From IMG/VR virus record IMGVR_UViG_3300033121_001869, positions 1-45,075 of that record: a stretch of DNA of 45,075 nt; one strand, written 5' to 3'. The translations under genes and the position numbers were made by a program. The notes under the pieces were generated by a model that was given only the letters and a program-made list of their open reading frames with translations, did not search any database and was not told the origin of the DNA. How positions within the stretch are numbered: the stretch's first letter is position 1; each line of letters starts with the position of its first letter. Positions 29,476-45,075 of the stretch are shown piece by piece. This DNA comes from a virus (lineage: Duplodnaviria; Heunggongvirae; Uroviricota; Caudoviricetes).

Positions 29476-30187
29476 AGTATCTTTTTATTATTTGCCAATA
29501 ATCGGGGTGTCTGATATCATTTTCATCGAAAACATCACCAACAAATTCATAGTCTTTTCTTATAGTTGGAAAGGGGCGAATTTCTCCTCCAAATTTTAAA
29601 CCAAATTCAGAATGTTCCAAAGAATCCCGATAGACTATCGGATATATTATTTTTGCTAAAAAATCTTGATCAACACCTAATTGATAATTCATTCTAAGAC
29701 TCGTCCAGTATTTTATCTTATCAATAAGATTGATTTGTCGTAAATATTCTGCTTTTGCTCCGAACATCCCACCCATGATAGGAGCCAAATGATGTGGATG
29801 ATCTCTCATTATATGAAACTTTTTACCAGACTTTATCCATTCTTGAACAGCTTCAAATTCTCTTAAGCTTAATCTAGAATCACAATCTCTTGATATAAAA
29901 ATATCCACATCATCATTCTCGGTTGGTAGAAATCTCCAAAACATACCCTGATGAGAATGTTGATAAGAACCGTTATAAGTCTCACCAATCAAATTGGGTT
30001 CAACTAAAACAACTTCAACATTCTCACCGACTAAAGTATTTATAAGATTTTCATCACAATTTTTATCTATATAAAATCTACATATCCAACCAGGATATAT
30101 TAACTTGGCAAGTTTTATATTTTCTACTGCGCCTTTCCAATAAATAGATTTATTTCCCCAAAGACTAAAAGATATTACATTCTTCAT
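29453..30187 (-). CDS. Putative GT-A-fold glycosyltransferase
   Basis: ISFSLWG, MFWRF, SRDCDSR (DxD), IMRDHP.H, MGGMFG, DQDFL. Confidence 0.7.
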   Translation of the reverse strand: MKNVISFSLWGNKSIYWKGAVENIKLAKLIYPGWICRFYIDKNCDENLINTLVGENVEVVLVEPNLIGETYNGSYQHSHQGMFWRFLPTENDDVDIFISRDCDSRLSLREFEAVQEWIKSGKKFHIMRDHPHHLAPIMGGMFGAKAEYLRQINLIDKIKYWTSLRMNYQLGVDQDFLAKIIYPIVYRDSLEHSEFGLKFGGEIRPFPTIRKDYEFVGDVFDENDIRHPDYWQIIKRYYEQAIYR

Positions 30188-30969
30188 ATGTGTTTCCAAA
30201 TTTTTCTGTTTAAAACTCTATAAATGGTATTGATATCTACCTTATAAATTTCTGAAAGTCTTTTTGGTGTCAAGTTAGATTTTCTAATTTTCAACACATC
30301 GTCTTCAGATAGTTTAGCTAAGTTATTTTTAGATCCAAGTTGAGATCTATTTCCCATTTTATAGGTATGTATCTTATTTTCGGACGATGTAACCCATTCC
30401 AAGTTTGAATAATGATTATTTAATTTATCAGAATCAATATGATTAACTTCCTTCTTATTTTCCGGATTTAAAATGAAATGTAAAGCTACCAATCTATGAG
30501 TCGATATATATTTTCTTTTTTTAGAATTTTTTATTGAAATTCTCATATTTGAATACCCATTCAATCCTACTCTTCCAGGTATAACATCTCCCCTAAGGTT
30601 TTCAACTCTACCTGTATCATATATAAAATAGTTATATTCCCTATCATCTATTATAATTTGTTTTTTGTTGTTTGATTTACATGGTATACACTTATCAAAT
30701 TTAAATTTGAATCTCTGATTACTCCTTCTATCATTATTTTCCTCCCATGTTATGAATTGTAAATTATTTAAACTGGCAATTTCTTCAAAAGGAATGTTTT
30801 TTAAAAATCCCTCTCTTACTGGAATTATATGATCTATTTGATATGATCCTGTCATTCCTGATAATCCTCTTTTATTTTTATCATATCCATCAACTAGATG
30901 TACAACTTTTTCAGTCTCATACCTAACTAACTCAGTGTATTCTTTTAGCTTTAATAAATCAATTTCCAT
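30184..30969 (-). CDS. Homing endonuclease with two HNH modules and a C-terminal HTH
   Basis: YQIDHIIP..NNLQFITWEEN and HRLVA..VNHIDSDKLNN..NLEWVTSSEN; AKLSEDDV. Confidence 0.85.
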   Translation of the reverse strand: MEIDLLKLKEYTELVRYETEKVVHLVDGYDKNKRGLSGMTGSYQIDHIIPVREGFLKNIPFEEIASLNNLQFITWEENNDRRSNQRFKFKFDKCIPCKSNNKKQIIIDDREYNYFIYDTGRVENLRGDVIPGRVGLNGYSNMRISIKNSKKRKYISTHRLVALHFILNPENKKEVNHIDSDKLNNHYSNLEWVTSSENKIHTYKMGNRSQLGSKNNLAKLSEDDVLKIRKSNLTPKRLSEIYKVDINTIYRVLNRKIWKHI

Positions 30970-31111
30970 CAATCTTACGCATATATTCTCTAACCAAAGA
31001 TTCTATTAACTTTGATTTATTTAAATTTTTGTCACTAATATGTTCTAAGAATTTTTTATATAATTCTGGATCCAGAGTATAGAAATCTCTAATCTTTCTT
31101 ATTTTTTCCAT
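30959..31111 (-). CDS. Small ribbon-helix-helix-like DNA-binding protein (50 aa; not in ORF track)
   Basis: MEKIRKIRDFYTLDPELYKKFLEHISDKNLNKSKLIESLVREYMRKIDGN: strand-helix-helix pattern; overlaps the HNH start. Confidence 0.7.
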   Translation of the reverse strand: MEKIRKIRDFYTLDPELYKKFLEHISDKNLNKSKLIESLVREYMRKIDGN

Positions 31112-31142
31112 ACTCTATATATAAAGTATGCTTTTCTCCCTT

Positions 31143-31169
31143 TGTGAAAAATGTGAAAAATGTGAAAAA
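31143..31169. repeat. Three perfect tandem copies of TGTGAAAAA
   Basis: Copies at 31143-31151, 31152-31160 and 31161-31169. Confidence 0.9.
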
Positions 31170-33264: not shown

Positions 33265-33984
33265 TTAAATTGGATTTCTATGATGTAAAGTCAATTGTCC
33301 ATAAGTATCAGATGGGTACAAATCTATTAAATGTAATCCATGTTGAGATATTAATCTATGGGGTTCAATTTTATATTTCTTACATAAAAGAGACCATATA
33401 GATTGATCATGTCTATGATCACCAAATTCAGGGTAATTATCTCCAGTTATATTTGGTAAATCAGTTATTATATTTTCATTTTGAGCATATTCCAAGTATT
33501 CTTTAACCAAATTAACAGTAAAATCATTCTTAATTATCCAAATATATGTTGCCTCTCTTTGAGAAGTATCATAGTATTCCGGGGAATCTAATCCCATTAG
33601 GACAAAAGCATCTTTTTTAGTATAACATTTTTCAAATAAACCATTCAACTCAAATGATAAAACTCCATGTTTATCTTTACTAACTTTATCCAATAAAGGT
33701 TGAAGGCTAGCTTGATAATAAGATCCAGAATCAGAATAAACCAATAAGTCACCATCTTGCATTTTTTCTAATGTCTTATTTAAGAAATAAGGTTTCCATA
33801 TCCACGATCCAAATCCTCTATGTATATTAAAAATGTTTTTATTTTTCTCCAAAAATGCAGCATCAATATCTTTATATCCATAACTATATACCTCATCAAA
33901 TCCGGCATGTATAGCGGATTGAGAACAATATTTTTGAGCTTGCAAATATCTATTATGTGCGAAATTAATGTGATACTTCCTCAT
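33265..33984 (-). CDS. Putative glycosyltransferase
   Basis: RGFG.WIWKP, YSDSG, HRHDQSIWSLL. Confidence 0.7.
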   Translation of the reverse strand: MRKYHINFAHNRYLQAQKYCSQSAIHAGFDEVYSYGYKDIDAAFLEKNKNIFNIHRGFGSWIWKPYFLNKTLEKMQDGDLLVYSDSGSYYQASLQPLLDKVSKDKHGVLSFELNGLFEKCYTKKDAFVLMGLDSPEYYDTSQREATYIWIIKNDFTVNLVKEYLEYAQNENIITDLPNITGDNYPEFGDHRHDQSIWSLLCKKYKIEPHRLISQHGLHLIDLYPSDTYGQLTLHHRNPI

Positions 33985-34654
33985 AATTAATTTTATCATT
34001 TTTTATATCTCTGTTGATTTTACTACAAAGTGGTTGTAAATTCGAGTAATGATTTAATTTTAAAAATTCATCCTCTGAAGTTGAATAAGAAATAGGAATT
34101 ATATGATCTATATCCCAACCATAATTAAATTCACCATTATACAATCCATGATTATCCCAATTCATCCAAGGTTTAAATTGTGATTCTAAATGAATTTTAA
34201 ATTCTTTAAATGAACATCCTAAAATTTCCTCCGTCTTTGATTTTTTAATCAAAAAGCTCTTCTTAAGAGCTCGTCTAATGGATCTCCTTATTAAAAAGGA
34301 TATTTTATAAAGATTATCATTTTTAAACCTTTTTTTATGATTTATAATTTTATTAAAATTTACTCGACTTCGATTATTTTTAGCATAGTTGGTACTATTT
34401 AGTCTCATCTTATCAAGATTATCATAATAATATTCTAGAGATTTTTTTCTAAATTTATCGGGATCTTCCTTCCTGCGATTTTTAGAATTATTCCTACTAA
34501 GTTCTCTTTTTTCATCAATATTCCTCAAATACCAATCCCTTTTTATATTCCTAAAACAGGAAATGCAATACGATTGATATCCATCATGCTTCTTTATATT
34601 TTTATGAAACTCTGATAAATCTTTAGATTCTCCACACTTTGAGCATTTTTTCAT
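33965..34654 (-). CDS. HNH endonuclease with N-terminal Zn ribbon
   Basis: CSKC..CISC; ILGCS..WDIDHIIP..NLQPL..IN. Confidence 0.85.
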   Translation of the reverse strand: MKKCSKCGESKDLSEFHKNIKKHDGYQSYCISCFRNIKRDWYLRNIDEKRELSRNNSKNRRKEDPDKFRKKSLEYYYDNLDKMRLNSTNYAKNNRSRVNFNKIINHKKRFKNDNLYKISFLIRRSIRRALKKSFLIKKSKTEEILGCSFKEFKIHLESQFKPWMNWDNHGLYNGEFNYGWDIDHIIPISYSTSEDEFLKLNHYSNLQPLCSKINRDIKNDKINYEEVSH

Positions 34655-34666
34655 ATAAGATATATA

Positions 34667-34822
34667 TTATATTTTTGTGCTCCCCCTTTTTAACTCCCTC
34701 AATTTATATAATCTCTCATATGACTTATGATTTCGGCAACAGAATTTTGCATCCTTTCTCATATAAGAAATATCTTTATCACAATTTCTATATTTACAAC
34801 TCCTGTTAGGATACTTTTTCAT
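34667..34822 (-). CDS. Small Cys/His zinc-finger protein, copy 1 (51 aa; not in ORF track)
   Basis: MKKYPNRSCKYRNCDKDISYMRKDAKFCCRNHKSYERLYKLRELKRGSTKI; ATGA overlap with the upstream gene; paralog at 38871-39026. Confidence 0.8.
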   Translation of the reverse strand: MKKYPNRSCKYRNCDKDISYMRKDAKFCCRNHKSYERLYKLRELKRGSTKI

Positions 34823-35859
34823 CTTGCGTAAATCATTCCCCATTTTTGTTTCCTTTCAGGAATTATTTCAATTTCTAATATCTCATCAAGTGATTTATAA
34901 TCTAAATTCCCACGATATTCGGAATACACAGGATCTCCCTCCATATGATAATCATTGGCAAATTCAGTATATCCCAAATCTGATAATATTTTTAAGCACT
35001 TTTTTGTATCCTCAAAACATTCCTCACACCACTCAAAAAGTATTAAACCACATTTTCTAGTCAATCCACTCAATGCTAAAAATTCAGCACCTTCAATATC
35101 CAATTTCAAAATATCAGGAATGCCATATATGTCTATTAAATAATCTAATGTGACAGAATTCATTTTAACTTCTCTCTTTGTTCTATCAAAAAAGTGACTA
35201 TGTCTTATTTCGGAAATCCATTTTTCATTTATAGAATTAATCCCAGGATTTGAATCACATATAAAAAAAGAAACCTCTTCATTTAATTTATCTGAAATAA
35301 TACAATTTAAAAGTGTCACATTAGGTATTGGATTTTGATTAAATTGATCAACATACATTGGATGAGCCTCAACAGCAATAATTTTTGAATTTGGATTACT
35401 CAATAATAATTCTCTGGTGAAATTGCCATGATTATATCCAATATCAAATATTAAACTCTCTTTATTATTATTCTTTTGGATGTCTTTTACATAAACATTG
35501 AATAAGACTTCTTTTCCACAAAGTGGATTGTTATAATCTATGACAGCTTTATCTTCATAAATATTTGTAACCCTTAATTTTCTTTGATTTGAATCAGTTA
35601 AATAATCACCAATTTTAACAGAAGGTGGTAACTGTGAGCTTGATATAGTCAATACTAAATTATTATCATAGTTTCCGAACTCTTCCTTTAAACCAACACT
35701 AACTTGGTCATTAACTGATAATCCGATTAATGAATCTTCAATTTTTTTAAATAAAGTATTAGATCCTATTTTTACCTTACCAAATCCATTTTCATGTGGA
35801 TTGGAATTTGCCGTTATTTGATATTCTACCAAAACGACATCATCTTTTTCAATTATCAT
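34819..35859 (-). CDS. SlyD/FKBP-type PPIase-like domain fused to an FkbM-family methyltransferase
   Basis: DVVLVEY..IEDSLIG..FG.YD..IDYNNPLCGKEVLFNV.V then IFDIGYNHG..VEA..TLD..LKLDIEGAE. Confidence 0.85.
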   Translation of the reverse strand: MIIEKDDVVLVEYQITANSNPHENGFGKVKIGSNTLFKKIEDSLIGLSVNDQVSVGLKEEFGNYDNNLVLTISSSQLPPSVKIGDYLTDSNQRKLRVTNIYEDKAVIDYNNPLCGKEVLFNVYVKDIQKNNNKESLIFDIGYNHGNFTRELLLSNPNSKIIAVEAHPMYVDQFNQNPIPNVTLLNCIISDKLNEEVSFFICDSNPGINSINEKWISEIRHSHFFDRTKREVKMNSVTLDYLIDIYGIPDILKLDIEGAEFLALSGLTRKCGLILFEWCEECFEDTKKCLKILSDLGYTEFANDYHMEGDPVYSEYRGNLDYKSLDEILEIEIIPERKQKWGMIYAR

Positions 35860-35912
35860 TAATTTTTAAAAATTTTTTCACTTATTATATAAGTTATTAT
35901 ATTCACTGTTTC

Positions 35913-36758
35913 TTATTTAAAAATGTTAAATAAGAAGTTTTTAATATTCTCAATTTTATTATTTTCCGGAATCTGATTATTATCAAACCAAGGTTGTCTT
36001 AACATATCAAGATATTTATCATCATTTTTATCTAATTCAATAATGAAATCTATCATATCACCCATTGTACTAAAATCATGAAAATTTACAAATGATTTTG
36101 TATTAAAATCATTTCCAATTTTATCACCACCCTTATATAAAGGTATTGAATTGACTGTCATGGGTTCCATTACCTTTTCTGTTATATACCAACTATATCC
36201 AGGTCTATATGCATTATTTTCAAAAGCTATAGAAAATTTATAATCTGATTGGAATTTACGCTTATCAGAAACAGGATATCCAATGTTATTCATCCATCTA
36301 CCACCCGAATCTACTTTCTTATATTTTGAAAGTTCTTGAACAAATAAATTTCTATCTTGACAATTTGGATTAGATGCAACAAAATTACAGAATTTTCTAT
36401 TAATGAGTAAATCATCAACCTTTTTATTTACTAAGTCATAATAACCACCATATAAAAGATAATGTGGAAGTCTATAATTACGAAAATCATCAATTTGATC
36501 AAATGAAAATGAATAGTCTGATCCTAACGGATCCTGATCCCTAAATACTGGTGCGATATTTTCTCCAATATAGCTAATTTTAATACTATTAAATTTTTGA
36601 TGAGAATTTCCAAATACTGAGTAAAACAAATAATCTGGGTTGTTGCTTATCTCAACAGTAAATTCTTGTTCTAATAAGTTATAAAAGTAGTTATCTTTTG
36701 GATTAAATCCTGGCCAAAAATCTGTGAAATTTATTTTAATTTTTTTCAAAATCTTCAA
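35913..36758 (-). CDS. GT10 alpha-1,3/4-fucosyltransferase-like
   Basis: FTDFW, FCNFVASN, YKKVDSGG, YKFSIAFEN..YITEK. Confidence 0.9.
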   Translation of the reverse strand: MKILKKIKINFTDFWPGFNPKDNYFYNLLEQEFTVEISNNPDYLFYSVFGNSHQKFNSIKISYIGENIAPVFRDQDPLGSDYSFSFDQIDDFRNYRLPHYLLYGGYYDLVNKKVDDLLINRKFCNFVASNPNCQDRNLFVQELSKYKKVDSGGRWMNNIGYPVSDKRKFQSDYKFSIAFENNAYRPGYSWYITEKVMEPMTVNSIPLYKGGDKIGNDFNTKSFVNFHDFSTMGDMIDFIIELDKNDDKYLDMLRQPWFDNNQIPENNKIENIKNFLFNIFK

Positions 36759-36820
36759 ATATTTTTATTATTATATTGTATTTATTTATTGATGTTTAAA
36801 TGTATATTAATACATAAAGG

Positions 36821-37522
36821 ATGAAAGAGTGCTCAGATTGTAAATTAACAAAAAATTTATCAGATATGGCTATTCATCATAAGAAGGATGATAAAATATT
36901 TTATCGAAATAGATGTTTAATTTGTCAAAAATTTTTTGACCAAAAAAGGTATAATAAAGAAAAAAGAAAAGATTATTATAAAAAGAACAAAGAATTGAAT
37001 AATGAATATTCAAGAAATTGGTCATTAAATAATAAAGAAAGAAAAAAAGAATTAAATAGTAGAAGGAATACACCCGAAAATAAACTAAAATATTCAACAT
37101 CGAAAAAGAAATGGAGAGAAAACAACAAGGACAAGGAGAAAGAATATGAAAAAAGAAGATATTCAAATAGAACTCCACTAAAAAAATTGGCAAATAATCT
37201 AAGAAATAGTATTAGATTATATTTAAAAAATAAAGGATTCATTAAAAAAAGTAAAACAGAAAAGATTTTAGGTTGTTCTTTTGAAGAATTTAAAATTCAC
37301 TTAGAATCACAATTTGAGGAGTGGATGACTTGGGACAATTGGGGTAAATTTAATGGTGAATTTAATTATGGCTGGGATATAGACCACATAATACCAATTA
37401 GTTCTGCCAAAGATGAATCAGATACAGTTACTCTTTGTAATTATAAAAATTTACGACCTCTTTGTTCTAAAATTAACAGACATATTAAAAGGGATAATCA
37501 ATCTAATCTTGATTCGCATTAA
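36821..37522 (+). CDS. HNH endonuclease, paralog of 33965-34654
   Basis: CSDC..CLIC; near-identical KKSKTE.ILGCSF.EFKIHLESQF..NGEFNYGWDIDHIIPIS. Confidence 0.85.
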   Translation: MKECSDCKLTKNLSDMAIHHKKDDKIFYRNRCLICQKFFDQKRYNKEKRKDYYKKNKELNNEYSRNWSLNNKERKKELNSRRNTPENKLKYSTSKKKWRENNKDKEKEYEKRRYSNRTPLKKLANNLRNSIRLYLKNKGFIKKSKTEKILGCSFEEFKIHLESQFEEWMTWDNWGKFNGEFNYGWDIDHIIPISSAKDESDTVTLCNYKNLRPLCSKINRHIKRDNQSNLDSH

Positions 37523-38222
37523 TAAGAATAATTTTTTCTCTAGTTGGTAAAAACTTACGATTATGCCAAGTTAGTTCATCCATCTTCCAATTTTGGTAAT
37601 AAGACCTATCAAAATTATCCGCTTGTCTCTTTCCAGCAGCGTGATGGTGGTGTTCAAATGTTGTTGAATCTTTAATTCTATCATCAATTAGAAGACCCAT
37701 ATCTTTCGCAACTAAATAAAGTTCACAATCACTAAACATGTGGTGATAAACAGGATTATAAATTATTTTATTCATCGCTGTTAAAGCAGAACCCTTCATT
37801 ATCGGAATAGTTATGGCTGGGTGTAACATATTTGATGAATCTGGAGCTTGATATCCATCACGAACAAAAAGTACTCCTTTTTTACCTTTTAATTTATTAA
37901 TAAGATACTCATCCCATTCATTTGGTGGTGTAAAATCATCAGATCCGAAAACAATTATATCATCTTCATCATATTCCAAAGTTGAAGATAATTTATAAGA
38001 TGGTAAACAAACTCCAGGATAAGGGGGATTAAAAACAACTATACGAAAGTCTTGATTAATAGATTCAAAATATTTTTTCAAATAGTCTTTTTCTGATTGA
38101 GTTGAAACCAAAACATGCACTTTAACACGCTCTTTAATTTTGGTAGCTTTATACCAATTACTATAAAATATAGGAAAATTGGATGTTCTTATCGTGCACC
38201 ATAGAAGATGTATTTTATTCAT
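37503..38222 (-). CDS. Putative GT-A/GT2-like glycosyltransferase
   Basis: CTIR, GSDD, WDE.L, Y.HMFSDCEL, EHHH. Confidence 0.65.
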   Translation of the reverse strand: MNKIHLLWCTIRTSNFPIFYSNWYKATKIKERVKVHVLVSTQSEKDYLKKYFESINQDFRIVVFNPPYPGVCLPSYKLSSTLEYDEDDIIVFGSDDFTPPNEWDEYLINKLKGKKGVLFVRDGYQAPDSSNMLHPAITIPIMKGSALTAMNKIIYNPVYHHMFSDCELYLVAKDMGLLIDDRIKDSTTFEHHHHAAGKRQADNFDRSYYQNWKMDELTWHNRKFLPTREKIILINANQD

Positions 38223-38856
38223 AATAGTAATTAAATTTTAATCCATTTGCGGTTTTTCTTTTACCATTACAAACAGAATTTATATTAGATCTTGGTATAT
38301 TAAGAGTATTTGAAGCATGACTTATGGAATCATATATAATTCCATTACTACAAAGTACTTTCTTTCTATGTTTTGATTTTCTTCCAGTTAGTGATTTAAT
38401 TAAAGCCATTTTATGTTCAATTGATAATTGGCAACCTTTTCTATTTGAAGGTTTACCACTATTAATTAAACTTAATTTAAGTTTAGTTTCTTGAGAATGT
38501 TTTTTCCCTATTTTACTATTTCTTATTTTTTCTATTGTTTCTTGAGAACATGCGGAGTTCTTACCACCAAATCCACAATTTAAACCAAAATTACCTGTGC
38601 TATTATATTTGTTAATGTAAAATATTTCTAATTTATTTAATTTTTCAATTAGTGTTATTTTATCTTCTTCCTCTATTGTTTCTAATATGTTAACAATATG
38701 ATTTTCAAATCCATGTTTTTTAATGCTATTAAAAATTTTTGGCTGACTAAAACATTTTAAATATTTATATTTTTTCATTCGATTATGAAAGTTTATTGTT
38801 TGTCCTATATAAATTTTATTTTTTGGATTTTTTATCATATAAATATTTCCGATCAT
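38215..38856 (-). CDS. GIY-YIG homing endonuclease (NUMOD3/NUMOD1)
   Basis: GNIYMI..IYIGQT..R..Y; HSQETKLKLS; YDSISHAS..VCNGKRKT. Confidence 0.9.
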   Translation of the reverse strand: MIGNIYMIKNPKNKIYIGQTINFHNRMKKYKYLKCFSQPKIFNSIKKHGFENHIVNILETIEEEDKITLIEKLNKLEIFYINKYNSTGNFGLNCGFGGKNSACSQETIEKIRNSKIGKKHSQETKLKLSLINSGKPSNRKGCQLSIEHKMALIKSLTGRKSKHRKKVLCSNGIIYDSISHASNTLNIPRSNINSVCNGKRKTANGLKFNYYYE

Positions 38857-38870
38857 TTAATATTTTTCTT

Positions 38871-39026
38871 TTATATATTAAATTTATGTGCTCCCCTTTT
38901 ATTTTTTTCTCTATATTTATACAATCTTTCATATGATTTGTGATTTCGACAACAAAATTTTGCATTCTCCCTCATTTCAGAAATATCTTTATTACAATTT
39001 CTATAAGAACACTTTCTCAACTTCAT
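38871..39026 (-). CDS. Small Cys/His zinc-finger protein, copy 2 (51 aa; not in ORF track)
   Basis: MKLRKCSYRNCNKDISEMRENAKFCCRNHKSYERLYKYREKNKRGAHKFNI; differences from copy 1 include many synonymous changes. Confidence 0.8.
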   Translation of the reverse strand: MKLRKCSYRNCNKDISEMRENAKFCCRNHKSYERLYKYREKNKRGAHKFNI

Positions 39027-39111: not shown

Positions 39112-39708
39112 TTATATCTTTTGAATAATCTGTGGAATTGCACCCAATTCAAGAACCTTCTTCTGATCCAATAAAAATTCAACATCATAGAAATTAAAAC
39201 TGAAAGTTATTTCAAACTCCTTTGATGTAACTTTTTGTTGCGAATAATCAAATACATTTCCTCCTAAATTTTTTAAAATTATTTGGAAAAATTTTATTAA
39301 ATAGATGCCATCTCTATGAATATCTAAAGCTGTTATAGTAAATGGATTCAAAAATAAATGATCTGTATCTAAATAGTGTTTAGAAATTATATCAAACATT
39401 AACCAATAATTTAAATCAGAATCTACTGAAGCAAATTTAACTGTCATATCATGTCCAACAATGTCCTGAATATTCTTAGCTGGTTTATAAGCTATTTGTT
39501 TACCTCTTTTAATTGTTTGTGTGGGTGTTTCAATAGTTATACCTGGAAATGAAACAGATTTAATAGTTGAATTTAAATAATCTATCACATTTTCATACTG
39601 AACCCAATTCTTTTCTAAAATATTTTTATAATATGCTATTATCTCACTGGGCAAAAAGTCGCTCGGTAAGTTAAAGACAAATTGGGAGGACTGAGAGTTA
39701 ATTCTCAA
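39112..39708 (-). CDS. Putative tail tube / tail-completion (T4 gp19/gp3-fold-like) protein
   Basis: IKSVSFPGITI, TVKF..D...Y..MFD, FEITFSFNFY beta pattern; adjacent to large structural-type genes. Confidence 0.5.
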   Translation of the reverse strand: MRINSQSSQFVFNLPSDFLPSEIIAYYKNILEKNWVQYENVIDYLNSTIKSVSFPGITIETPTQTIKRGKQIAYKPAKNIQDIVGHDMTVKFASVDSDLNYWLMFDIISKHYLDTDHLFLNPFTITALDIHRDGIYLIKFFQIILKNLGGNVFDYSQQKVTSKEFEITFSFNFYDVEFLLDQKKVLELGAIPQIIQKI

Positions 39709-39717
39709 CTGATGGTT

Positions 39718-40974
39718 TTATTTTTTATCTGATATTATCAGTTGTTTTTCTAGAGTTTTTCTAATTTTATTCTGGTTGTATTTTATTCTAATTAATTTAA
39801 TGTCATTTTCCAAACACCATTTATTCTTACAATTATCTCTTTCTATTATTTTTTGAAATTCAAATTTACCACCAAATTCTTTTATTGGTTTAAAATGTTG
39901 AATTCCATCAAATTCAATACATATTTCTAATTCCGGTAAGTAAAAATCAAAGCTTAGTTTGTTTATATACCTACAAGTATCAAACCCATGTTGTCTTATA
40001 TATTTAATATTATTTTCTTCTAAATAACATTTAATATATTCCTCACCTACTGAATTAAATTTACATTCTGGACATCCTTGTCCTTTCATATGTTTGTGTA
40101 TATTTTGGGCAAATTCGTCATGTTCCTTACAAATAATGATAACTTTATTTTTCACACCTTCAAATTTTACCTTTGAATAATCATATTTATCAAAATGTAC
40201 TTTTTGAAACTCACACTTTAAAACATCATCATTCCATTTACCAATTCCAACACATTTAGGACATCCATCTGCAAGATTAATATGATTTGAAACTCGTTGA
40301 ATGAAAATTCCATGTTCCTTGCAAATTATCTCAACTTTTGATTTACTAGAATCAATTTGATTTACTAGCGAATAATCATATTTATCACCGTGTACCTCGT
40401 TAGACTTATATAAAAAATGATTTAAAGTTAATTTATTTGGCTTCATTCCCAATAAATGCCTATCTACCCGATATGACATTATATCATTTGTTAATTTATT
40501 ATGTATTTTAATTTTGTCAGTAGAGTAATAAGAATCCTTTTCAATTATATAGTTAAATAATCCATTATGTATTTCTTTCAATTTACTAACTAGTGAATTT
40601 GATTCTATTTTGGTCGGATTTATTCCATTTCTATGATGATCTGATAATTGTATATAAGTCAAATTATTTTCTTTATTTGTGATTTTTATATAATCAGATG
40701 ATTTTACAACATCACTTTCAATATAATAGTCAAAATTTTTTCGACTATATTGTTTTAAAAAATCCTCTTTTGTTATGGATATATTTCCAGCACATTTTGG
40801 GCAACCCTGACCATCTTTGTGATTTTTTGCACATTGTTCAAACACACCATGCTCTTTACAAATTATATTTATTTTAGTAGAAATATTAGTATAATCAACT
40901 AAAGAATAATCATACTTATTCCCATGTTTCTTTTTACACTTTGATATAAATTCTTCTTGCGTCAATCTTTTCAC
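39718..40974 (-). CDS. PD-(D/E)xK/Vsr-like homing endonuclease with repeated HGxKYDYS/CxxHG..GCPxC modules
   Basis: Repeats plus C-terminal GE..FDFYLP..IEFDGIQHF..D..KN.WC..LIRI. Confidence 0.85.
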   Translation of the reverse strand: MKRLTQEEFISKCKKKHGNKYDYSLVDYTNISTKINIICKEHGVFEQCAKNHKDGQGCPKCAGNISITKEDFLKQYSRKNFDYYIESDVVKSSDYIKITNKENNLTYIQLSDHHRNGINPTKIESNSLVSKLKEIHNGLFNYIIEKDSYYSTDKIKIHNKLTNDIMSYRVDRHLLGMKPNKLTLNHFLYKSNEVHGDKYDYSLVNQIDSSKSKVEIICKEHGIFIQRVSNHINLADGCPKCVGIGKWNDDVLKCEFQKVHFDKYDYSKVKFEGVKNKVIIICKEHDEFAQNIHKHMKGQGCPECKFNSVGEEYIKCYLEENNIKYIRQHGFDTCRYINKLSFDFYLPELEICIEFDGIQHFKPIKEFGGKFEFQKIIERDNCKNKWCLENDIKLIRIKYNQNKIRKTLEKQLIISDKK

Positions 40975-41018: not shown

Positions 41019-42785
41019 TCAAGATAAACTGCTAGTTCCAGATATTGTAACTAATTTTCGAGTAACAAGTGCAGTGTTTCCTAAATCCTCTTCTTGAAGT
41101 ATTATATCACCAATAGTTGTTTCATTATTGATGATCGATTGCTCAGAGAATACCGTTTTAGCCTCTTTGGAATCTGATGGTAAAAATAATCCTGAATAAA
41201 GAATAGTCCTAACCCCATTATTATTTGTTGTTATATAAAATAAATTATTACCATTTACATATGATTTTTTTAAATCTTGATAAGAGCTTTGAGGCACTTT
41301 AAATGAGCAACTTCCAATTTTTAAATTGGAAGCATTTGGATTTAATCCAAATTCATAGTTATTTTTGTCTGATTTAAATGATAAGATTAAACTTTGAGAG
41401 TTTGTCAAATCCAAAAAGTCTAAACTATCCTGAGATTTCGTAGCCAAAGAAAATTTAATCATATTATCAAATGGTTCTATCAATATCTTAATGCCTCCAA
41501 TTGGGTGATAATTTAACAAAGTAGATTCTGATTTTGGATTTATATCATTATCCGAAAAAGCATATACCGAATTTATACTGATAAGTATTGGAGTATCAAT
41601 GTTTACTGTTACCTCCTGTTGATTTCCTCTAGTTAGTGAATCAACCTCAGCTAAATTTATATTCTTCTTAATATAAATTTTTGGTTTTTGTGTCTCTTGT
41701 ATTTTTATTTTTTTTAGATTCAATGAATATTTAGAGATTTGATCTGGCTTTAATCCATATGATGCGCTCCTTGTTAAAGTTGAATTATCAACCTTATCAA
41801 TTAGTCGCATTTCAACATTAATTATAGCATTTGTTGTTGAATATTTAATTATTGGTCTCCATTCAATTACCTCACTAAAATTTGAATCAATTGTAAATTT
41901 AACTGTTTTACCCTTTATATCTTGTTCAAAGATAGTTATCAAATATTCAATATAGTAAACTTTTCCAATTTTTAAGGATTGATCCATAAAAGATATGAAA
42001 TCATCAAATGAATTATTATAAAGTGGATATATTTCAAAATAATCACCAACAGATGATTCTTGCATATATAATTGAAGTTCTTGCAGATCGGGAGATTGTG
42101 AAACTTGTGTAGTAAAAGCATTGCTCAAAGTATAAAATCTCTGTGATCCAATTGTTTGTATATTTGTAATAAAACTAAAATCTATAAATATTGGAGATGT
42201 TAAAGAAATACCAACACCATTTGTTAAAACATCATTAATGCTATCCTCTGTTGCCACACCGAGAGTTCTATCTAGAGATAAAAATAAGGCTGATGGTATT
42301 TCAATTACAAGTTCCTTATCCCATAATCTATTTTCATATAATATTGATTTTACTGTTTCTATTCTACCTAATTTAGAATCATCATTTCTATCATAAAAGA
42401 AGCTAGATAAATTTATCAATTTTTTATTTGTGAAATCATAGATATAAACCTTTAAATGAATTCCCTGATATTCTCTAAAATTAAAATTAACTGGAAAATG
42501 AATCTTAAGAGTATCATGCTTTATCGGACCATCACTATTATAATTTGATATTTGTAGGAAATTGTATAATGTTGTATCAATCTTAGCATATTTATTTCTA
42601 ACTATATCTACCGGAAATAATTGGTCGTCAATCGAATTTCCACTTAGATTCCCACCAATATATGAAAGTTGATTATCTCTAATGTTATTTAATACTGAAA
42701 AGGATTCAGTTATGTAATTATTATCATCATATATCCATTCCAATAATATATCGCGATGTACTTTTTTAAATGCTGATGTTTTCAT
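41019..42785 (-). CDS. Large hypothetical, probably virion structural protein
   Basis: 588 aa beta-rich; paralog of the upstream gene (HFPVNFNF..GIHLKV; IEWRPIIKYSTT). Confidence 0.7.
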   Translation of the reverse strand: MKTSAFKKVHRDILLEWIYDDNNYITESFSVLNNIRDNQLSYIGGNLSGNSIDDQLFPVDIVRNKYAKIDTTLYNFLQISNYNSDGPIKHDTLKIHFPVNFNFREYQGIHLKVYIYDFTNKKLINLSSFFYDRNDDSKLGRIETVKSILYENRLWDKELVIEIPSALFLSLDRTLGVATEDSINDVLTNGVGISLTSPIFIDFSFITNIQTIGSQRFYTLSNAFTTQVSQSPDLQELQLYMQESSVGDYFEIYPLYNNSFDDFISFMDQSLKIGKVYYIEYLITIFEQDIKGKTVKFTIDSNFSEVIEWRPIIKYSTTNAIINVEMRLIDKVDNSTLTRSASYGLKPDQISKYSLNLKKIKIQETQKPKIYIKKNINLAEVDSLTRGNQQEVTVNIDTPILISINSVYAFSDNDINPKSESTLLNYHPIGGIKILIEPFDNMIKFSLATKSQDSLDFLDLTNSQSLILSFKSDKNNYEFGLNPNASNLKIGSCSFKVPQSSYQDLKKSYVNGNNLFYITTNNNGVRTILYSGLFLPSDSKEAKTVFSEQSIINNETTIGDIILQEEDLGNTALVTRKLVTISGTSSLS

Positions 42786-42786
42786 A

Positions 42787-45075
42787 TTATTGTTGTTTTA
42801 ATATTAGATATTTTTTTATTAATTCGTTAATATCACTATTTATAGGAATATTCGATCCAGTTATTAATATTGATTGTGGCTTAGAAAGCTTACTATTCAA
42901 ATAAGATGTCAAGTCTGATTTACTATTTGAGATAGTTTGTAATATATCCAAATCCTCAGGATTAAAATTATATATTTTAAAATATCCCAAAATTAAATCA
43001 ATAGTGGATTGAGTAATTGGTGATAAATTACCAGTTGACTTATCAACCTCAATTGAAGATAAGATTCCATATTCTTTCAAAGTAATAGAAAATCTTCTCA
43101 TATCTTTTGGCACTTGATATTTATTTATCCCATTAGTTGAATTAGTATTAAACTGATAATCATATGATATTTTCATAATATTGAATGTTTCCTCAACTAT
43201 TGAAGAAACCCAATATGGTTTCCAAGAATTATAAATTGTCGTTTCGATCTTTTTAAATTCATCAGAAGAGGAAAAATCAGTATTTGAATTTTTAGGCTGA
43301 ATATAATTAGTTTCTGATGTATTAGATGATGTAGGAACATTTAAATTATTGGACATTAAATCTTTAACATCATTCATCTTCTTTAATTCATTAGAATTAT
43401 TATTCTTCTTTTTCTTAGAAGTTAAAGCATTCTTATTGGAATTAAAGTCCTTTTCAATCTTAACAATATTAGGTGTTGAATCCCAAGGAGTATAAAATCC
43501 AGTATAAATTATTTCTTTGTTACCATTCAAAATTCCAGTAATGTAGAACAAGTTAAACCCAGATTGGTATATTTTTTTCAATTCAGAATATTTATCCTCA
43601 TTAATTTTAAAAACAATAGACCCAAACTCAAAATTATTCTGATCAGAATCCTGATATATCGAAAAAGTAATATTTTTCTTATCATTTCTGAATACAAGAC
43701 TTATATTAGAGTATAAACTCATATCCTTCATAGTATATTGTTTAATTGGATCAACTGCTAATAAATTGAATTTAAATATATTATCATATGGAAAGATGAA
43801 TAAATTTAATTGTCTATTAGACTTCCAAACTTTATTTAAATAATTAGCATCTATACCATCCAAAACAATATCATAACCCATAGAATATATTGTGAATGGT
43901 GTTTTATTAACTTTTAATGTCGTATTAACTGAATTTGTATTATTTATATCCAAATTAGGAGTATTGATTCCTTTTGCCTTGAATACTTTGATTTTTGTAG
44001 CTTTAGTTAAGTCTATTTTAGATATAAATTTTGAATAATTTGAAATTTCATCCTGTAATAAAACATAAGATGATTTTCTAACTATCTCAGACTCATCAAC
44101 AGCATCAATTAGTCGACATGTGACATCTATAATAGCAGTAGTTGTTGAATATTTAAAAATAGGTCTATATTCTATTTCATCTATAAAATTCTCAGTTATA
44201 AGTATTTTCTGGGAAGATGCTTTGATGTTTTTTTCATATGTATCTATTTGATATTCAAGGTAATATCTATTGCCAAATAAAATTGATTCTTCGATGAATT
44301 GATTAAATTCCCCAATTGAACCATTAAATGTGGCATATATCAAAAAGAAATCTCCTTGATTTGACTTTTCTATAACAACACCAAACTTTTCAAATTCGGG
44401 ATATTGTGGAAATGAAATGCTTTTCTTCTCAATAAGATTAAAAAAGAGTCCTCCATTGGATACTTGAACATTTTGTAAAAAGAAGAAATCAACAAATACA
44501 GGAGCATTTTTTGATAATCCGACACCATTACTTAAATTATAATTAATGGTATTTTCACGAGTTACATTCTGAACTCTTTGATCAGATATTTTATCCGGAG
44601 ATGGAAATTGTATCTCAATATATTTACCCCAACTTGTTTCAAACTGATATAATGGAGGACTAGCATATTCCAACTCAAATGTTTGATCCATATTACTAAT
44701 ATTGAAGAGATAATTTGATAAATCGATAAACTTTTGATTATTAAAATCTAAAGTAAATACTCTCAAATGAAATCCCTTAAAATCATCAAATGTGTAATTA
44801 ATTGGCATATGAACACGCACTTTATCATATCGAATCGGTATGGAAATTCCATAATCCTTTTTTTGAATAAAAGAATATGAATTTATATCTAACTGACCAT
44901 ATTGACCCTGATCACTATTTAATTTAACTGCTTGATTAGCAAAATATTTACTAATAGTACTGCCATTCTCAATTACAGATTTTAATAAAATATTATTTCT
45001 TGTCTCAGGCAGGGTTGATAAAAATGAATTTACTGATGTATTTGAATTAAAAACAATCGAATAAGGCTCACTTAT
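42787..45075 (-). CDS. Large hypothetical, probably virion structural protein (5' end beyond the window)
   Basis: Frame stays open from 44820 to the window edge (ISEPYSIV.. aligns with ITESFSVL of the paralog); HMPINYTF..GFHLRV; IEYRPIFKYSTT. Confidence 0.75.
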   Translation of the reverse strand: MSEPYSIVFNSNTSVNSFLSTLPETRNNILLKSVIENGSTISKYFANQAVKLNSDQGQYGQLDINSYSFIQKKDYGISIPIRYDKVRVHMPINYTFDDFKGFHLRVFTLDFNNQKFIDLSNYLFNISNMDQTFELEYASPPLYQFETSWGKYIEIQFPSPDKISDQRVQNVTRENTINYNLSNGVGLSKNAPVFVDFFFLQNVQVSNGGLFFNLIEKKSISFPQYPEFEKFGVVIEKSNQGDFFLIYATFNGSIGEFNQFIEESILFGNRYYLEYQIDTYEKNIKASSQKILITENFIDEIEYRPIFKYSTTTAIIDVTCRLIDAVDESEIVRKSSYVLLQDEISNYSKFISKIDLTKATKIKVFKAKGINTPNLDINNTNSVNTTLKVNKTPFTIYSMGYDIVLDGIDANYLNKVWKSNRQLNLFIFPYDNIFKFNLLAVDPIKQYTMKDMSLYSNISLVFRNDKKNITFSIYQDSDQNNFEFGSIVFKINEDKYSELKKIYQSGFNLFYITGILNGNKEIIYTGFYTPWDSTPNIVKIEKDFNSNKNALTSKKKKNNNSNELKKMNDVKDLMSNNLNVPTSSNTSETNYIQPKNSNTDFSSSDEFKKIETTIYNSWKPYWVSSIVEETFNIMKISYDYQFNTNSTNGINKYQVPKDMRRFSITLKEYGILSSIEVDKSTGNLSPITQSTIDLILGYFKIYNFNPEDLDILQTISNSKSDLTSYLNSKLSKPQSILITGSNIPINSDINELIKKYLILKQQ

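Follow-up and report, generated by a model that had tools for sequence, protein, structure and literature searches.

A small zinc-finger gene as the putative first gene of homing-endonuclease cassettes in an uncultured large phage

A 45,075-nucleotide (nt) stretch of viral DNA (here called the window), constituting the first 45 kb of the 182-kb linear IMG/VR virus record IMGVR_UViG_3300033121_001869 (~79% complete; 27.7% G+C), carries two copies of a zinc-finger (Zn) open reading frame (ORF) of 51 amino acids (aa), one followed by an HNH and the other by a GIY-YIG endonuclease gene. The best explanation of the data as a whole, and the one towards which we lean, is that each Zn copy opens a free-standing homing-endonuclease cassette of two genes, in which the Zn protein would act as an accessory. 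The four genes of the two cassettes are:

Zn ORF A, 34667-34822, minus strand: 51 aa counted from MKKYPNRSC, 5' gene of cassette A
HNH endonuclease A (HNH-A), 33965-34654, minus strand: 229 aa, 12-nt gap from ORF A, matches phrog_1035 (E-value (E) 1e-21)
Zn ORF B, 38871-39026, minus strand: 51 aa, 5' gene of cassette B, documented by the ORF list, homologues, the ratio of non-synonymous to synonymous change (dN/dS) and an AlphaFold2 model
GIY-YIG endonuclease, 38215-38856, minus strand: 213 aa, 14-nt gap from ORF B, 3' gene of cassette B

Zinc-finger ORFs and nuclease genes as a probable mobile unit

Both Zn ORFs are present in a mechanical ORF list, although the first-pass annotation described below had called them missing from its ORF track. 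A start at the ATG at 34843 would lengthen ORF A to 58 aa and make it overlap the end of the FkbM methyltransferase gene. No direct repeat of the window is longer than that made up by the two copies (D1; 133 nt, 77% identity), which are the only ones in the 182-kb record (tblastn E 1e-31 and 5e-18) and are 71% identical as proteins. A first-pass annotation of this DNA had quoted their common peptide motif, had claimed coding selection on the tiny gene and had named an HNH gene behind A and a GIY-YIG gene behind B; the motif was correct, the nuclease genes lie downstream as described, and the selection is borne out by the codon comparisons. Over a 34-codon core, A and B differ by 8.5 synonymous and 9.5 non-synonymous changes (dN/dS 0.14), while ORF B and its nearest relative are separated by 9 synonymous and 0 non-synonymous changes. 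Because synonymous sites are near saturation while dN/dS across the comparisons of this core is 0.03-0.3, the Zn ORFs are genuine coding genes under strong purifying selection.

Small Zn relatives (approximately 30) were collected by an exhaustive HMMER search and two word-based searches, and a metagenome scan was run with the alignment of close relatives; the close clade is defined as Zn ORFs with the motif CCR[NRK]HK. Genomic contexts were fetched for all close relatives and tabulated. The two top matches of the exhaustive search (P0010 and P0011, with 12-21 'stretches') were discarded as spurious: the core profile matches neither of them, and P0011 is a repeat devoid of cysteines. Megablast against deposited phages yielded no more than two short matches, both to uncultured huge phages; the close relatives in protein sequence and synteny were contigs from lake, sludge and other environmental metagenomes, together with IMG/VR contigs of up to 385 kb. 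Tallying the genes downstream of these homologues, as the first-pass annotation had suggested, placed a nuclease gene 10-30 nt behind the close-clade Zn ORF, or overlapping it, in all 14 distinct cassettes (14/14), which represent about 10 genomic contexts:

GIY-YIG, 213 aa: window cassette B, L003, L008 and L023
HNH, 186-247 aa: window cassette A, L017, L019, L022, L038, L039, L040 and L044
HNH broken into pieces of 113+29+101 aa: L016
HNH with an internal deletion: L047

Locus L047 had been considered as an empty site, and was rejected as such since it holds the internally deleted HNH gene. In a further, DnaJ-linked clade the order is reversed, the HNH gene overlapping the start of the Zn ORF in L025 and L046, and L045 retaining an HNH remnant.

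Sites with and without a cassette were compared at locus B, which is flanked in the window by two genes:

Glycosyltransferase-like gene (GT), 37503-38222, minus strand: 239 aa, adjoining the GIY-YIG gene
198-aa gene, 39112-39708, minus strand: weak tail-tube-like PHROG match, left flank of cassette B

In three IMG/VR loci (L052, L053 and L054) the 198-aa gene is followed after 49 nt by GT, and neither a Zn ORF nor a nuclease gene is found; at exactly this position the Zn ORF and the GIY-YIG gene are located in L008 and in the window. The common left flank reaches a GTATAATTA element approximately 20 nt before the GT start, the ATG of the Zn ORF follows two bases later, and at the other end of the occupied site the GIY-YIG stop overlaps the new GT start, as seen for the window genes. 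No Zn ORF was found by tblastn or motif regex in any of 21 nuclease-free GT loci (0/21; ~155 kb). The intergenic site of L017 (55 nt) holds no cassette; there, a Zn ORF with an HNH gene lies inside GT instead, between positions matching 6056 and 6074 of L003. The right flank of this insert is GT sequence of the L008/L022 allele type, a flank pattern as expected from co-conversion and hence an indirect sign that homing may have taken place. In L022, a Zn ORF and an HNH gene are inserted after codon 41 of a GT paralogue, the Zn ORF being read there as an 88-aa fusion. The Zn regions of L008 (GIY-YIG) and L022 (HNH) are 92% identical at the DNA level, and both cassettes lie within the first 150 bp of the GT region, which on these comparisons is evidently a recurrent target of Zn cassettes. 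Locus A likewise looks like an insertion, judging from the gene order in L004, where the counterpart of the downstream 244-aa gene comes straight after an FkbM gene.

The unit inserted or absent between related phages is thus about 0.8-0.9 kb in length and comprises the Zn ORF and the nuclease gene together. Since the Zn ORF is gained, lost and moved together with the nuclease gene, it is not a resident gene invaded by nucleases, and the two very probably constitute one mobile unit. This agrees with the first of two possibilities raised in the first-pass annotation, a two-gene module of a constant Zn partner and a swappable nuclease: the two genes are present or absent together, move together, and the Zn ORF is joined to either a GIY-YIG or an HNH gene.

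As regards the inserts within GT, the gene is interrupted at about codon 82 in L017 (L017:176-2124) and at codon 41 in L022 (L022:369-881), scrambled and duplicated GT fragments surround the insert, and an 11-nt direct repeat (AAAATCCAGT-like) flanks that of L017. Housing of the cassettes within group I introns inside GT was rejected for lack of an Rfam match; across the window and 11 related loci, no model of a group I or II intron gave a match with an E of 1 or less.

A promoter-like element embedded in the zinc-finger ORF

A GGGGAGCACA..TAATATATA tail that includes the stop codon is located in the last codons of the Zn ORF and does not follow the ORF. The two window copies are:

Element A, 34661-34684, minus strand: GGGAGCAC box at 34684-34677 and TAATATATA at 34669-34661
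Element B, 38872-38895, minus strand: GGGAGCAC box at 38895-38888 and TAATATATA at 38880-38872, upstream of the GIY-YIG start

The GGGAGCAC box is exact in 8 of 9 close cassettes, where the A and G runs preceding it differ in length, and because it is read in three different frames (G-S-T, G-A-H/Q and G-E-H), it is conserved at the DNA level. The TAATATATA motif occurs in 64 copies in the genome (in the window, for example, at positions 2146, 7363, 10601, 13629, 23794, 24175, 34669, 38880 and 40987), 55 of them intergenic though only ~9.5% of the genome is intergenic; for a control motif (TATAAATA) the corresponding numbers are 70 and 10. Altogether, 43 copies of TAATATATA lie at most 60 nt upstream of a start on the same strand, usually 4-10 nt before the ATG, a position which implies that the leaders of the putative transcripts are very short or lacking, and that there is no Shine-Dalgarno sequence. 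A subclass carrying the box, AAGGGA[GC]-N11-T[AT]ATATATA, was found in six copies with spacing constant within 2 nt (window 31116-31143, 34661-34684 and 38872-38895; rest of the virus record, G000, ~62255, 97142 and 173375). It precedes the two Zn-cassette nuclease genes, an RHH-like ORF starting at 31111, a LAGLIDADG gene (~62.2 kb) and two tRNA clusters containing HNH genes.

The Zn ORF tail is best read as an embedded promoter-like element serving the nuclease gene, a promoter role being suggested by position and enrichment. Since the motif is common to unrelated genes, the tail was assigned to a promoter-like class and not to a private Zn site. The first-pass annotation had suggested a DNA-binding assay on the GGAG element; the occurrence of the GGGAGCAC box in front of the RHH-like ORF, the LAGLIDADG gene and the two tRNA clusters led us to drop this box as a cassette-specific Zn operator. 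Near the cassettes, the only further occurrence of the box found was a tandem duplication in L017, and no conserved complementary partner that could form an RNA hairpin with the box was seen by eye across cassettes. When GIY-YIG and HNH cassettes are compared, similarity stops right after TAATATATA. Because this motif is common to many genes, including other nuclease genes, it is a plausible recombination joint by which different nucleases may have been placed behind the Zn ORF.

Some observations on the motif sites concern other genes. The two tRNA clusters (L077 and L078; 95.2-97.3 kb and 173.3-175.5 kb of G000) contain 9 and 14 tRNAs, respectively, in the fetched stretches, and both have an HNH gene among the tRNAs, which recalls segB in the tRNA region of T4. 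Many genes directly after TAATATATA start with MKYLKxFE (for example at 56275, 57349, 64364, 75582, 98629, 114271, 130024 and 170605 of G000), suggesting a large paralogous family.

Fold and possible role of the zinc-finger protein

Neither Zn ORF matched a Pfam family at E up to 1 or a PHROG, a Protein Data Bank sequence search with the family profile gave chance matches only, and a Foldseek search with the Zn model returned nothing at E up to 0.001. The alignment has many invariant columns (C6, Y8, R9, N10, C11, D14, I15, M18, R19, A22, K23, C25, C26, R27, N28, H29 and K30), and ORF B shows treble-clef-like ligands (C6, C11, C25(/C26) and H29) followed by a basic helix. Because distant relatives carry FCSRNCK where close ones have FCCRNHK, the ligand set can be given as C-x4-C-x13-C-x3-[H/C]. 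The AlphaFold2 model, made from a 28-sequence alignment (mean predicted local distance difference test score 88), consists of a zinc knuckle and then a single basic helix (residues 27-46). In a wide VIA-align comparison the best Z was 4.7 and all values were below 5, which is too weak for naming a fold family.

The best lead for the fold of the modelled protein is the CGNR treble-clef finger of Jann_2411, for which family membership is not established. In that finger the ligands are spaced C-x4-C-x15-C-x3-C with an aromatic residue before the third ligand, and DNA binding was proposed by its authors (PMC2954205). In sequence pattern and in the AlphaFold2 model the Zn ORFs resemble this domain (zf-CGNR, PF11706; PDB 3h0n), with a C-x4-C knuckle, two more ligands where a basic helix begins and an aromatic residue just ahead of ligand three; unlike it, they have a loop of 13 and not 15 residues, a histidine as last ligand and no ABATE domain. 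Superposition on 3h0n by Foldseek gave a TMq of 0.57 over 40 columns, but with an E of 8.4 this is not significant, and neither Zn ORF matched the PF11706 profile (Pfam, E up to 1).

With a profile of the core, whose E-values refer to a nominal library size of one million sequences, finger modules related to the Zn ORFs were also found fused to other domains, mostly of HNH nucleases:

P0030: three modules and HNH_3 (E 3e-14)
P0015, 651 aa: finger repeats and a C-terminal HNH (E 2e-14); three repeats scored by the profile, each weakly, and more seen by eye
P0009: module and HNH (E 8e-7)
P0023: module and the middle region of the HNH-A family (E 2e-13)
L045 ORF: C-terminus of the HNH-A family running in frame into the module (E 1e-14)
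P0035: two modules by the profile (three by phmmer) and pentapeptide repeats (E 1e-9)

The motif common to the Zn ORFs and the fused proteins comprises C-x2-4-C, DIS, A-K/R-F/Y-C and H/C. The window arrangement resembles the HNH endonucleases with N-terminal zinc fingers (P0015, P0030 and P0009; PHROG 1035, annotated 'endonuclease VII') in that the finger adjoins an HNH catalytic domain. In contrast to such single-chain proteins, finger and nuclease are encoded here by separate ORFs, the finger ORF having a start and a stop of its own and a promoter-like element lying before the nuclease gene, and one of the two fingers is paired with a GIY-YIG enzyme. The phrog_1035 profile aligns through Zn-A, the TAA stop and HNH-A with 86 bits, versus 78.9 bits for HNH-A alone. 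HNH-A, which has its own ATG, is in frame with ORF A across this single TAA, the other two frames being closed; to judge by the gap lengths, only part of the cassettes share this in-frame layout. For cassette A, a frameshift at the A/G run that would fuse the two ORFs was rejected because both the -1 and the +1 frame are closed ahead of the nuclease ORF. The window nuclease and Zn ORFs all have their own starts and stops. Zn-A and HNH-A modelled as a complex (both supplied as alignments) scored 0.00, a result which counts neither for nor against binding.

A second small ORF occupies a comparable position in the window:

RHH cassette, 30184-31143, minus strand: AAAGGGAG at 31143-31136, TTATATATA at 31124-31116, RHH-like ORF at 30959-31111, HNH_3-type nuclease gene at 30184-30972

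The match of the RHH-like ORF (50 aa) to RHH_1 is weak and below the cut-off (E 0.007); the ORF overlaps the HNH_3-type nuclease gene. Behind its two relatives, in L073 and L075 (80% and 98% identity), the nuclease gene is instead an HNH gene of the phrog_1035 type, the products being 45% and 36% identical to HNH-A, respectively. A second, unrelated small ORF therefore stays constant while the nuclease changes, which makes the parallel to this cassette drawn in the first-pass annotation stronger than had been claimed.

In the proposed mechanism, the Zn ORF would be transcribed from any upstream promoter, at the intergenic site from a resident TATAAT-like element, and the nuclease gene from its own boxed promoter-like element. 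Elsewhere, one to three or more copies of the finger module are fused to HNH nucleases, and the Zn protein would represent the stand-alone counterpart of such modules; as a nucleic-acid-binding accessory acting in trans with the downstream nuclease, it could help this enzyme engage DNA at or near the homing site in the GT region. An accessory role is favoured because the module is covalently fused to HNH enzymes in other genomes, and the fusions, known from comparison of sequences, are the only direct evidence tying the finger to nuclease function. A further point in its favour is the near identity of the Zn ORFs in L008 and L022, which go with a GIY-YIG and an HNH gene at the beginning of the GT region. 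As the specific function of the Zn protein, this role is a serious candidate that still falls short of being probable. Several points weigh against it. Both nucleases already carry DNA-binding modules of their own, and one finger of 50 aa confers little sequence specificity. A DNA site of the Zn protein specific to the cassettes was not found, and the evidence for an accessory is all comparative. At least eight distant family members do not adjoin nuclease genes, and in L043 the Zn ORF stands in front of DnaJ without a nuclease gene. Conversely, nucleases of the same families occur without a Zn ORF (three phrog_1035 paralogues in this virus, and an HNH and a GIY-YIG gene in L072), and a Zn partner is therefore not generally required.

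A role as controller is nearly as likely as one as accessory, while being itself a tentative proposition: the Zn protein, made first from whatever promoter lies in front of it, would repress the promoter-like element of the nuclease gene or inhibit the nuclease, limiting self-damage in the manner of an antitoxin-like gatekeeper. This would account for a small DNA-binding ORF immediately 5' of the nuclease gene (gaps of 12 and 14 nt) with a separate promoter-like element embedded in it, and it is less difficult to imagine that two unrelated nucleases are served by one regulator than by one targeting subunit. It would also fit the structurally unrelated RHH-like ORF in the same position, paired with a different nuclease in relatives, as RHH proteins are classical operator-binding repressors and antitoxins. 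Precedents for control of nucleases are provided by I-TevI (PMC2988022) and the C proteins (PMC2997769). However, the GGGAG box is not specific to the cassettes, being found also at the LAGLIDADG gene and the two tRNA clusters, and neither a second box nor an operator-like repeat was found near the Zn ORFs. Covalent fusion of the module to HNH suits a functional part more than a repressor, this genome tolerates paralogous nucleases lacking a Zn ORF, and the Zn fold is modelled as a zinc knuckle with a single helix, and not as a helix-turn-helix (HTH) or RHH fold.

Less probable still, and improbable in our judgement, is that the Zn ORF is hitchhiking cargo, that is, a small phage gene with an unrelated job, for example that of modulating a protein of the host or phage, which a homing cassette has picked up at its 5' end and which spreads by co-conversion. 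Homing is known to drag flanking DNA along (PMC2988022), as the flanks in L017 may illustrate; distant members are stand-alone small genes not adjoining nucleases and often lie beside a 340-500 aa protein, the L043 copy is kept before DnaJ without a nuclease gene, and the fold is weakly reminiscent of small zinc-finger proteins that bind other proteins, such as YacG (Z 3.3). Such a gene would not be expected to show the 14/14 association of the close clade with two nuclease families in about 10 contexts, nor the fusions to HNH nucleases, and the phages with empty sites lack the Zn gene altogether. The second possibility raised in the first-pass annotation, a landing pad invaded by endonucleases, in which the 3' end of a resident Zn ORF would be the recognition site of different homing nucleases, is contradicted for the close clade and very improbable. 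The left junction is common to two nuclease families, and in the DnaJ-linked clade the Zn ORF is constant while an HNH gene upstream of it may be there or not, both of which would suit a landing pad, but the empty alleles are also without the Zn ORF. The latter has no fixed position and travels with the nuclease gene, even into the middle of another gene, while the joint junction is explained by the common promoter-like motif.

Two observations concern the distant Zn members and the DnaJ-linked loci. Distant members in L024, L030, L032, L033, L041 and L050 have a C-terminal extension ending in ..LFNLIN, and the 340-500 aa protein that they adjoin is unannotated, without a Pfam or PHROG match. 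A 305-aa LAGLIDADG homing endonuclease is encoded directly upstream of the DnaJ gene at 60500-62242 of G000 (L076), where L025 and L045 have HNH and a Zn ORF before DnaJ, and this position may be an invasion hot spot.

Relation to known systems and genomic setting

Homing endonucleases are usually treated as one-gene selfish elements, in which DNA-binding and catalytic parts are shuffled within one protein, and the window nucleases themselves look like ordinary free-standing homing endonucleases. The free-standing homing endonucleases of T4-like phages (GIY-YIG enzymes encoded by seg genes and HNH enzymes by mob genes) show empty and occupied alleles, gene splitting, co-conversion and promoters of their own (PMC2988022). 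As in that system, GIY-YIG or HNH genes lie here between or inside conserved phage genes, which may be split, and their presence varies among relatives; unlike the T4 cassettes, which are single nuclease genes (PMC2988022), those described here have a constant small 5' gene behind which the nuclease family changes. The features of the nucleases are thus textbook, and what we did not find described is the constant small Zn gene as the 5' part of homing cassettes. No description of a conserved, separately translated small DNA-binding 5' gene in such cassettes was found in PMC2988022 or in a full-text literature search, from which absence cannot be proved.

In toxin-antitoxin systems, small regulator genes are re-paired with different toxins. 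The C proteins of restriction-modification systems are encoded by a small DNA-binding gene immediately upstream of, or overlapping, a nuclease gene (PMC2997769). Like the genes of C proteins and RHH antitoxins, the Zn ORF is a small, putatively DNA-binding gene directly upstream of a nuclease gene; in contrast to them, it encodes a zinc finger and not an HTH or RHH protein, no operator was identified, and it belongs to a phage homing element and not to a defence or addiction module. The promoter of I-TevI is controlled through a DNA-binding module that contains a zinc finger (PMC2988022); there the nuclease itself is the repressor, whereas any such role in the window would fall to a separate protein.

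A predicted, separately encoded DNA-binding partner that travels with the nuclease gene and survives exchange of the nuclease family suggests an added layer of targeting, timing or self-protection. It is conceivable, if somewhat unlikely, that the homing nucleases of this large freshwater phage lineage are generally two-component, with a portable small DNA-binding protein, either a treble-clef zinc finger or the RHH protein of the sister cassette, encoded at the 5' end and guiding or gating in trans the nuclease module that has recombined behind it at the common promoter-like motif. If so, they would provide a natural split, mix-and-match architecture for site-specific nucleases (GIY-YIG, HNH and HNH_3). 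A 51-aa protein, two nucleases and natural empty-site DNA constitute a small experimental system, in which one can ask how free-standing nucleases spare their own phage and get to new sites. A class of promoter-like motifs in an uncultured large phage is mapped by the data as well, and the GT gene stands out as a repeatedly invaded target.

Of the two cassette nucleases, HNH-A has an N-terminal CxxC..CxxC zinc ribbon, a basic linker and a C-terminal HNH domain with invariant D-H...N...N columns (alignment A5), its Pfam HNH score being 16.4, below the cut-off of 21.4. The GIY-YIG protein matches PF01541 with 32.7 bits (cut-off 22.6) and contains NUMOD3 and I-HmuI NUMOD-like DNA-binding modules. 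At least nine nuclease genes of homing families are found among the ~240 genes of the virus record, including one used here as a comparator:

Paralogous HNH gene, 36821-37522, plus strand: 233 aa, without a Zn ORF

The cassettes lie in a minus-strand stretch of sugar-modifying genes (fucosyltransferase, FkbM methyltransferase and glycosyltransferase-like), among which nuclease genes are scattered. The FkbM-type methyltransferase gene (34819-35859) encodes 346 aa, compared with 195-224 aa in relatives, the surplus being an N-terminal part of ~130 aa. At 39718-40974 the window encodes a 418-aa protein with DUF723 and DUF4379 treble-clef repeats; a 238-aa homologue (L055:2140-2856) adjoins an N-terminally shortened copy of the 198-aa gene, and may represent another mobile nuclease-like gene. 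A second direct repeat of the window (D2; 41782-41882 and 44090-44190) spans 101 nt at 74% identity.

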